Assembly: GCA_019058365.1 (NCBI GenBank) | Contig: JAHPZE010000037.1 | Location: 1 to 35,597 of the forward strand | Source: Promethearchaeota archaeon | GTDB lineage: Archaea > Asgardarchaeota > Lokiarchaeia > Sigyniarchaeales > SOKP01 | Direction: 5' to 3' | DNA: 35,597 nucleotides | In this document: positions 24,547 through 26,669 of the stretch, piece by piece | Layout of the letters: each line of letters starts with the position of its first letter | Position numbering within the stretch: position 1 is the stretch's first letter | Translations under genes and position numbers: made by a program | The notes under the pieces: model-generated | Seen by the model: the letters and a program-made list of their open reading frames with translations, nothing else | What the model was told of the DNA's origin: nothing | The model's database searches: none

Positions 24547-24697
24547 TCGTGAAATGGTTACAATTTTTAATTAGTAAAAATAGCATGTGTTTTATAAAAT
24601 AATCGAGTTCTTAATTCCCGAACTTTAAAATTATTAATTATAAATTAGGTAGTAATTGATTGAAACTGCTTTTTGATGGGGATTCGTGAAATAACCG
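24547..24697 (+). repeat. Complete A-spacer-B element, family II
   Basis: TCGTGAAATGGTTA at 24547 and TCGTGAAATAACCG at 24684 (offset 137). Confidence 0.88.
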
Positions 24698-24777
24698 AGA
24701 ATTAAAAAAAACTTACACTCAATATAATCTCAAAATTATAGAATAAATATTTAATTAATTGCTCCTTTATAATAACT

Positions 24778-25002
24778 ATGAACTTCTCTTTTGATAAGAT
24801 GGCAAATGCACTCTACATTCGATTTTCAAATGAAAAAATCTCAAATTCAGATGAAATAGCAGAAGGAATTATAATTGATTATGGTAAGAATGAGAATATC
24901 GTTGGAGTAGAGATTTTAAATTTTACAGACCGTAAGCTCGACCTTAATGATCTTATACAAATGAATATTGAAGAATTAATTCCAAAATTAGCGCAGTGTT
25001 AA
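24778..25002 (+). CDS. DUF2283 family protein
   Basis: D..ANALYIRF...IIIDY.....IVGVEIL. Confidence 0.88.
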   Translation: MNFSFDKMANALYIRFSNEKISNSDEIAEGIIIDYGKNENIVGVEILNFTDRKLDLNDLIQMNIEELIPKLAQC

Positions 25003-25398
25003 TTTCTTCTTTTTATCTACAATTTTTCCTTGTTTTAAAATAATTATATTGTCTTTAAACATCTTAATATCAAGTGTTTTCAGTAAAGTTCGAAACTCAG
25101 GTAGTACATTTTCATCAATTAATGGGTGAATGTCGATAATAATTATGTAATTATCAAAACTGTGCTTATAATACATAAATTCTTTATCATAAGTAATCAG
25201 AATACATTTTTGTATTCTTGCTAACTCCATCAATTCACTATTTTTAGCCCCTCTTTTATTTAAATCTTGAACAGTTTTAACTTCATATTTATCTGAAATC
25301 AGTTCTTTTTTTAAATTAGAGGAGACATTCTCATCTAATAAAAATTTTAACTTATGAGATTCTGGCACTGCTTTTTTCCTCGATATACTCTCGTGCAT
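24988..25398 (-). CDS. DUF5615 PIN-like toxin (true start probably internal)
   Basis: KFLLDENV...ILITYDKEF; coupled to DUF433. Confidence 0.8.
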   Translation of the reverse strand: MHESISRKKAVPESHKLKFLLDENVSSNLKKELISDKYEVKTVQDLNKRGAKNSELMELARIQKCILITYDKEFMYYKHSFDNYIIIIDIHPLIDENVLPEFRTLLKTLDIKMFKDNIIILKQGKIVDKKKKLTLR

Positions 25399-25579
25399 AC
25401 CTAATAGCGGCTGAAATATCAGCTCTAGTTAATTGTGGATATGCTTCAATGATTTCCTCAAACGATTTCCCAGCCTCTAGCCATTCAAGAATAAGGGATA
25501 TCATAATTCTTGTTCCTTTAATGCGAGGTTTACCATGACAAATTTCCGGATCAGCAGCTATTCTTTCTTCATCAATCAT
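25352..25579 (-). CDS. DUF433 family antitoxin
   Basis: DPEICHGKPRIKGTRI...YPQLT..DI.AAI.YA. Confidence 0.92.
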   Translation of the reverse strand: MIDEERIAADPEICHGKPRIKGTRIMISLILEWLEAGKSFEEIIEAYPQLTRADISAAIRYAREYIEEKSSARIS

Positions 25580-25756
25580 AAATAATTCTCAATTTTTATA
25601 AAGTCTGAAATCCTAAAATGTATTTCTATGTCTTTATATAGTGACCTAAGTATAAATATATAATGCCAATCTCAATTTTTATTAAGTAAGCGTGTGCATA
25701 TTTTCAAATAAGGGAATAATTAAATGAAATCATATTATGCCAAAATATATGAATCT

Positions 25757-25908
25757 TCTAGAAACGGTTACAGAACTAAAAGCTAACCTTAAAATATCTA
25801 ATTAATGAAAAATAAGAGCTGAGTCTTTAATGAAATGATTCTTAGGTCATTAAGATTCTGGAGAAGACGTTGTTAGATGAGCTTTAATTGAGGATCGTGA
25901 AATAACTG
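25757..25908 (+). repeat. Complete A-spacer-B element, family I
   Basis: TCTAGAAACGGTTA at 25757 and TCGTGAAATAACTG at 25895 (offset 138). Confidence 0.88.
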
Positions 25909-26008
25909 AGATTAGATATTTAAAAAAAGAAATTTCACTAGAAATATTTCGAGATTAAAATCAAATCTCAATCTTAGATTGAGAGAGGAAAGTCTTTATT
26001 AATAGTGA

Positions 26009-26431
26009 TCATTCGAAAATTCTAGAGATTCGAGATAAAGGGTGCCCTTTAGCTTTCATTTCTAATTCGTTAAACCATCCAAAAGGAAGTCGGAGTACAG
26101 AATAATCCTTTAATTTTAATAGGGATTCAACTTTTTTGAAAGACTCAAAAGCATATTCTAAGGAACTAAGCTGACCAAATAGATGAGCAAATGGTATTAT
26201 CACAATAGTTGAGACTTTTAATTGTTTAGTTATTTTTTCAATTTCGATAATTTCTTTTTCTATTATCCCAGTTTTTGCCTCATCTGATTTTTCCATGCTT
26301 ATAAAAAGAACTAATGCGTTGTCAACTTGGTTTTCTTTATTTTCTTCTAAAATTTCCTCAATTACCTTAGAACGACCTTTCTCTGTTACTTTATATCGAA
26401 AATAATCTACATGAAAAGATAAAAATCTCAT
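26009..26431 (-). CDS. Stand-alone archaeal threonyl-tRNA synthetase editing domain
   Basis: MR.L.FH.DYF.Y, PFAHL, PFGW...E.KAKGHPLS..SR. Confidence 0.88.
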   Translation of the reverse strand: MRFLSFHVDYFRYKVTEKGRSKVIEEILEENKENQVDNALVLFISMEKSDEAKTGIIEKEIIEIEKITKQLKVSTIVIIPFAHLFGQLSSLEYAFESFKKVESLLKLKDYSVLRLPFGWFNELEMKAKGHPLSRISRIFE

Positions 26432-26517
26432 TTAATACTTTATTTTTTTTTCTTATATTAATAATTGATTATTAACACTTGTGCTCAATAATATTATACA
26501 ATATATAAGTCTAACAT

Positions 26518-26669
26518 TCGTGAAATGGTTAAAGTTTTAAAATAATGAATAGAGCATTCCTTTTCGGTTTTGACGATCTCCTTCTATTTTTAAATAAGGG
26601 TTTTTTAAAGTTAATTCAAGGTCATATATATAAAAAGAGAAAATTTAACAGGGATTCGTGAAATAACCG
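26518..26669 (+). repeat. Complete A-spacer-B element, family II
   Basis: TCGTGAAATGGTTA at 26518 and TCGTGAAATAACCG at 26656 (offset 138). Confidence 0.88.

Follow-up and report, generated by a model that had tools for sequence, protein, structure and literature searches.

One-armed half-sites converge on a single palindromic site in Promethearchaeia gene arrays and probably recombine with it

Direct repeats that share an outer arm and carry mutually inverted inner cores raise the question of whether they are traces of site-specific recombination and, if so, with which partner site they recombine. Such repeats were found in contig JAHPZE010000037.1 of assembly GCA_019058365.1 (G000), a Promethearchaeota archaeon; the whole stretch of 35,597 nt is hereafter called the window, or contig C11, and a second contig of the assembly, C41, also carries these repeats. 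Site A consists of the arm TCGTGAAA followed by YGGTTA, and site B of the same arm followed by TAACYG. In the present study, A and B are interpreted, with a probability of roughly three in four, as hybrid half-sites of a conservative site-specific recombination system around one full site, the palindrome P, which occurs once per genome at the center of an array whose two arms are built from accessory, toxin-antitoxin, and defence modules. P spans 22 bp (TTCGTGAAA-CGGTTA-TTTCACGAA); A corresponds to the left arm and core of P, and B, on the opposite strand, to its right arm and core; both lack a second arm.

Between positions 24547 and 26669, three units composed of A, an intervening spacer (S) of ~123 bp, and B follow one another on the + strand, within a longer co-oriented array. 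The features are as follows.

24547-24560, + strand: A half-site, TCGTGAAATGGTTA (arm TCGTGAAA plus core TGGTTA, a variant of CGGTTA).
24561-24683, + strand: spacer S of a complete A-S-B unit (arm starts 137 bp apart; no significant fold).
24684-24697, + strand: B half-site, TCGTGAAATAACCG (arm plus core TAACCG).
24698-25756: cargo module running from B to A, with a DUF2283 gene (+ strand) and a DUF5615/PIN-like and DUF433 pair (- strand).
25757-25770, + strand: A half-site, TCTAGAAACGGTTA (decayed arm TCTAGAAA with 2 mismatches; canonical core CGGTTA).
25771-25894, + strand: spacer S, family I (arm starts 138 bp apart).
25895-25908, + strand: B half-site, TCGTGAAATAACTG (arm plus variant core TAACTG).
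25909-26517: cargo module with a gene for an archaeal threonyl-tRNA synthetase (ThrRS) editing-domain-like protein (- strand).
26518-26531, + strand: A half-site, TCGTGAAATGGTTA (arm plus core TGGTTA).
26532-26655, + strand: spacer S (arm starts 138 bp apart).
26656-26669, + strand: B half-site, TCGTGAAATAACCG (arm plus core TAACCG).
34256-34269, + strand: A half-site outside the above range (upstream flank 94% identical to a P flank in a relative, G066:C269).
17451-34406, + strand: remainder of the co-oriented array, with B at 17451, 23673, and 34393 and A at 19002, 21972, 23704, and 27584.

The original prediction that the sites share their starting arm and that their cores are reverse complements was confirmed at these positions, and chance could be excluded as the source of the pattern. 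The 8-mer TCGTGAAA was found 10 times in the window against 1.2 copies expected, a number reached in none of 100 shuffles; genome-wide it was at expectation (176 copies versus ~163, as estimated from base composition), and a search of the whole assembly located the 14-mers A (8 copies) and B (7 copies) on C11 and C41 only. Moreover, A and B take turns along one strand far more often than chance allows, and the only hexamers recurring more than three times after the arm were CGGTTA, TAACCG, and their variants. Logos of 54 A and 44 B sites from G000 and its relatives revealed 15 conserved bases, the conserved block being tTCGTGAAA-CGGTTA or tTCGTGAAA-TAACCG-a, with nothing similar to a second arm beyond the core.

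The canonical cores CGGTTA and TAACCG represent the consensus in relatives (49 of 54 A sites and 40 of 44 B sites), and TGGTTA and TAACTG in the window are minor C-to-T variants of them. None of the window elements pairs both canonical cores; each combines one canonical core with the C-to-T variant of the other. An alternative is base pairing between the two cores within one strand, either of RNA or of folded DNA similar to attC, which would make the element a hairpin. The variant cores of the window would indeed still pair on the + strand via G-T wobbles, as would 8 of 13 variant pairs overall. However, the four complete elements folded no better than shuffled sequences on either strand (z from 0.06 to +1.36), all variants were C-to-T transitions, the check for core covariation uncovered 0 compensatory double changes among the 13 variant pairs, Rfam yielded no match, and the interior of S was barely conserved among units. 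A hairpin was thus rejected as an explanation that retains almost no probability. No tRNAs were detected in the window.

Joining A to the reverse complement of B across the core predicts the junction TCGTGAAA-CGGTTA-TTTCACGA. The exact 22-mer was absent from the whole G000 assembly, but C41:60120-60141 reads TCGTAAAA-TAACCG-TTTCACGA, one mismatch away from it, and this is where site polarity switches from the + strand (every site on the left) to the - strand (every site on the right). Among 54 genomes of the genus, most of them fragmented metagenome-assembled genomes (MAGs), P was present once in each of eight and was absent from the single-contig genomes G006 and G023. A scan of public metagenomes for P, exact with one arm position left free, recovered 85 contigs. 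In 80 of these, half-sites to the left of P comprised 46 on the + strand and 1 on the - strand, and those to the right comprised 0 and 66, respectively; hence, 112 of the 113 half-sites beside P were oriented toward it. Likewise, six contigs of the genus showed + sites, P, and - sites in this order without any return of polarity past P, and in G069:C4 the array occupies 20.9-67.3 kb with no sites beyond those limits. The predicted palindromic junction is therefore real, being represented by a one-mismatch copy in G000 and by exact copies in relatives and metagenomes, and it forms the hub of the array.

The public genome contigs bearing P belonged to Promethearchaeota/Promethearchaeia MAGs. In addition, contig JANBVM010000001.1 (L147), labelled Patescibacteria (26% GC), contained a complete array of this type, comprising two A-S-B units (P serves as the B site of the second) and an additional B site on the - strand past P; the contig is probably of Asgard origin and was mis-binned. 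Two matches to P in Bacteroidaceae were taken as chance; in one of them (L148:1290-1380, a Bacteroidaceae MAG with 48% GC), the exact match is embedded among repeated copies of ACATTTCACG; it has no relation to the Asgard arrays and may belong to an operator or to a different repeat. Viral carriers were also considered: 35 IMG/VR matches to a 16-mer were obtained, each with a single site, and were judged consistent with chance.

In G000, a duplicated cassette (C11:29156-29822) is matched by one end each of C11 and C41, in an orientation that fits C11 running into the reverse complement of C41; the contig-end pieces lie at 35418-35597 of the window and at C41:81675-81800. Most likely, the reverse complement of C41 thus follows C11, with a gap of ~0.4 kb between them. 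So joined, the window sites would be part of a ~40-kb arm pointing at the P at C41:60120.

Comparison of genomes and contigs further revealed rearrangements with end points at the sites. Of the flanks in the 86 P-bearing contigs, 84 on the left and 85 on the right were distinct, and the contigs L062 and L109 shared 2867 bp at 98.9% identity on the right side of P, with unrelated sequences on the left side. In five cases, a 200-bp flank that adjoins P in one contig was found beside a half-site (A or B) in a second contig (89-98% identity). The A site at 34256 in the window provides an example, as its upstream sequence is 94% identical to G066:C269 through TTCGTGAAACGGTTA and the homology stops right after the core, beyond which the window enters spacer S and G066 enters TTTCACGA and then unrelated DNA. 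The ends of homology blocks between the arrays of different genomes clustered at the start of the B arm (16), the start of the A arm (9), and the end of the A core (6). For instance, the DUF2283 cassettes of G048 and G001 are homologous to the window from the arm of the B site at 24684-24697 onward, and the B-to-A module C41:54497-55780 matches G001:C323:1515-2776. The core orientation of P relative to the conserved flank also differed, with G050 opposed to G000, G069, and G018. Since identical flanks are joined either to P or to a half-site, A and B behave as hybrid products resembling attachment (att) sites. The suggestion that they are attL/attR-like products was thus upheld as regards hybrid half-site behavior, but not in the form of a simple attL/attR pair around one insert for A(+) and B(+).

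These observations can be accommodated if productive reactions require P as one partner. In shorthand, P is arm-core-arm', A is arm-core-x, and B is arm-core'-y, where core' denotes the reverse complement of the core. Recombination between P and a half-site with the core in direct orientation would excise or integrate a circle bearing the half-site and regenerate P, whereas with the core inverted the intervening DNA would flip, P would shift to the place of the half-site along the array, and the half-site would remain on the opposite strand. Both reactions would keep exactly one P and leave all half-sites pointing to it, and the ~150-bp A-S-B unit would act as a module-borne site with two crossover points of opposite core polarity. 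Reactions restricted to P would explain the 112 of 113 polarity, the single P, the varied lengths of the array arms, the variable core orientation of P, and its hypervariable flanks. A reaction between two half-sites would yield a second P and an armless core; no such products were seen, except for a possible armless CGGTTA at window position 13014. At 13014-13110, the 93 nt after this CGGTTA show 74% identity to the spacer sequence at 24553-24645, and TAAATCTA precedes it in place of the arm; the outer end of the array may thus hold an armless junction or an A site that has decayed.

The mutual inversion of the cores and the CGGTTA followed by S-like sequence at 13014 would also suit a different proposal, in which the 137-bp A-S-B element is an invertible switch and recombination between A and B flips S to give a palindrome and an armless core. 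No inverted form of the element, that is, P followed by the reverse complement of S and an armless core, was found; all A-S-P units retained an intact A arm, each array had only one P, and 123 bp would be very short for a DNA loop. Inversion of the element between its own A and B is therefore not supported, and a switch is given scarcely any credence. A single large inversion between A and B as the origin of P was also considered; it predicts a return of polarity and an armless core, and it was ruled out by the polarity never returning and by the outermost sites showing no consistent armless junction.

The A-S-B unit itself showed a nearly fixed length. The A-to-B distance was 134-140 bp in 28 of 43 consecutive pairs, and arm starts were 137-139 bp apart in 30 of 34 distinct units. 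With their ~150-bp size, conserved ends, variable interior, and exclusively intergenic location, the units could be taken for small non-autonomous transposable elements inserted between genes, similar to miniature inverted-repeat transposable elements (MITEs) or repetitive extragenic palindromic (REP) elements. Nevertheless, they were restricted to one chromosomal locus once C11 and C41 are joined, their terminal inverted repeats would consist of the 6-bp cores only, no target duplication was present, and the direct 8-mer at the B end sits inside the element. Moreover, A and B also occurred singly and with genes between them, they kept strict polarity toward P, and the units did not fold; no Y1 transposase was found in G000, the one transposase family searched for. 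A transposable element is accordingly regarded as very improbable, and the reading of the unit as a module-borne recombination site is retained.

The B-to-A intervals (0.25-6 kb) contain the cargo, which in and around the range 24547-26669 comprises genes on both strands for VapB/VapC, DUF2283, DUF433 with DUF5615, the ThrRS editing-domain protein, and UPF0175 with DUF3368. Cargo-less B-to-A slots were also observed: at 23673-23717 of the window a B site is directly followed by an A site with 17 bp between them, and at L095:12753-12774 the two are separated by 7 bp. Genes for a ParA-like ATPase, a protein of ~195 aa of unknown family, and a NucS_C/PD-(D/E)XK-like protein adjoin P at L015:14867-16935 (G069:C4) and L017:8132-10145 (G018:C57), and in G018 a HerA-like ATPase gene precedes this operon. 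The operon was considered as a part of the P system and set aside as cargo, being present in only 3 of the 54 genomes; it is probably a defence or partition module.

Regarding the enzyme, a tyrosine recombinase is the most likely catalyst. G000, with a completeness of 100% by marker genes, encodes XerA on C7 (238.7 bits; cut-off, 220), together with a 429-aa integrase on C46, and no serine recombinase was found in it. An XerA-sized match was obtained in 49 of the 54 genomes, and in four array-bearing ones (G002, G045, G066, and G053) this protein was the sole tyrosine recombinase detected, which would make host XerA the only candidate from a known family. The 429-aa integrase was discarded as the enzyme, since it occurs in 10 of the 54 genomes and tracks the arrays only loosely. 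No arms were found near the gene of this integrase or near xerA; about 20 kb from the integrase gene, a 2.6-kb stretch (C46:180820-183466) holds three arms on the same strand, namely TCGTGAAATAGTTA, TCGTGAAACAAGAA, and a palindrome with 2 mismatches.

The arms are not confined to the array. Palindromes of the form TCGTGAAA-N6-TTTCACGA with other, G+C-rich spacers occur elsewhere in G000 (7 perfect and 2 near-perfect), as listed below.

C9:119906, C16:147576, C21:130894, C30:20289, C34:25479, C34:245222, C39:54308, C40:38019, and C52:17178: dispersed palindromes of G000.

This is the most recurrent 8-N-8 palindrome of the genome; a second recurrent palindrome, AAAACCCA-N4-TGGGTTTT, was present in 6 copies. 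Palindromes with the same arms and other spacers were found in all 24 genomes of the genus sampled, and at an orthologous locus the spacer was conserved while the flanks diverged. Nine of ten palindromes, P included, lie just downstream of a gene or tRNA, most of them within 100 nt of its 3' end, and the genes beside the dispersed copies are unrelated housekeeping genes. A regulon was thus dismissed, given the unrelated neighboring genes and the position of the sites at gene 3' ends.

This distribution bears on another explanation, namely that the arm is the site of a host DNA-binding protein other than a recombinase, with a role in chromosome organization, termination, or regulation. Microhomology or homologous recombination at the conserved 15 bp would in that case bring about the shuffling of modules, and polarity toward P would be held by selection, like that of FtsK-orienting polar sequences (KOPS) or XerD half-sites around bacterial dif. 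The universality of same-arm palindromes in the genus, their housekeeping loci and conserved spacers, and the lack of a recombinase linked to the arrays favor such a protein, as do the half-site arrays around dif with a non-recombination role that are known in bacteria (XerD half-sites, XDS; cited in PMC11840125). On the other hand, breaks fall exactly at the core end between flanks that are otherwise 94-99% identical, the flanks of P are almost never common to two contigs, and 15 bp is too short for efficient homologous recombination; the 112 of 113 polarity would moreover be an automatic outcome of reactions with P, for which selection is unnecessary. A non-recombinase protein as the whole explanation is therefore considered unlikely, and recombination at P is preferred.

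Several points nonetheless weigh against recombination at P. The same arms build 7-9 other palindromes per genome, with different but conserved spacers and stable flanks, and from this pattern a genus-wide host factor would recognize the arm and may be a protein other than a recombinase. The crossover position can be resolved no finer than the shared 14-15 bp, and neither an excised circle nor an alternative arrangement within one population was observed. P does not contain the TAA-N6-8-TTA hallmark of archaeal dif. No linked recombinase gene was found in the window, beside P in six genomes, or in the conserved flank, and one-arm half-sites are not known to serve as substrates of XerA. Finally, the constant length of S (137-139 bp between arm starts) has no demonstrated role.

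Searches of the accessible literature on the motif, and on Lokiarchaea together with gene cassettes, returned nothing relevant. On balance, it is fairly probable, though somewhat less so than the half-site interpretation itself, that the arrays represent an undescribed gene-capture and shuffling platform of Promethearchaeia, with one P and polarized cassettes of one-arm half-sites, run by XerA or an unknown enzyme and unlike integrons and dif modules in architecture. If so, Asgard archaea would have a fixed place in the chromosome where defence and toxin-antitoxin genes are collected and reshuffled, with neither an integron integrase nor folded attC sites involved. This would provide a mechanism for the hypervariable islands in the archaea that are the nearest known relatives of eukaryotes and widen the substrate range of Xer-type or other recombinases to one-arm sites acting on a single full site. 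The short, defined sites (22 bp for P and 14-15 bp for the half-sites) make the system easy to test, and the motif allows such arrays to be found readily in metagenomes.

Among known systems, the dif modules of Acinetobacter plasmids (pdif), which are moved by XerC/XerD (PMC13141974, PMC6449649), are the nearest analogue, followed by integrons and by integrative mobile elements exploiting Xer (IMEX) at dif. As in the present arrays, pdif modules are small, very often encode toxin-antitoxin systems, in some cases lack open reading frames (ORFs), and lie between short sites with a 6-bp spacer whose polarity alternates from site to site; rearrangements likewise end at sites, in pdif at those with matching spacers (PMC13141974), and the presumed catalyst is a host Xer enzyme rather than a linked integrase. 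However, pdif sites are complete and two-armed, whereas the module boundaries here consist of one arm plus the core; the arms here are all co-oriented and the core alone flips, each array has one full site on which all half-sites converge, and the arrays lie in Asgard chromosomes, where they occupy a syntenic locus.

Integrons, with IntI, attI, and attC and with archaeal representatives (Ghaly et al. 2022, PMC9668308), similarly combine a primary site with module-borne sites of ~60-150 bp that have conserved ends and a variable middle, and they carry arrays of small accessory genes with much toxin-antitoxin cargo, at a fixed chromosomal location in the case of sedentary integrons. They differ in that IntI is missing here (the best match of G000 to the integron-integrase model scored 97.9 bits against a cut-off of 265), no hairpin-forming attC with R''/R' boxes (RYYYAAC...GTTRRRY) is present, genes lie on both strands, and there are two convergent arms rather than one. 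With no IntI, no folding attC, and no co-oriented cassettes behind one attI, identification of the arrays as integrons was rejected.

IMEX of the CTX phage type resemble the proposed reaction in that the incoming site has one good arm and combines with a full palindrome to give a hybrid site and a regenerated full site, and XDS cluster as half-sites around a full site near bacterial dif. Unlike in these cases, P is probably not the chromosomal dif, the cargo consists of gene modules rather than phages, and the modules bear two half-sites of opposite core polarity 137-139 bp apart. The geometry foreseen in the original prediction was upheld. Like loxP, FRT, and archaeal dif, P has inverted arms around an asymmetric 6-bp spacer, but its arms measure 8-9 bp instead of 11-13 bp. 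Archaeal dif has imperfect inverted repeats of ~11 bp and a 6-bp spacer, with TAA-N6-8-TTA as its most conserved trait (PMC11840125), whereas the inner triplets of P are AAA/TTT in place of TAA/TTA; this difference, together with the absence of P from G006 and G023, makes it probable that P is distinct from the chromosomal dif. New compared with all these systems are the one-arm half-sites, in which the arms are co-oriented and the cores flip, the presence of only one full site, and the convergence of two arms.

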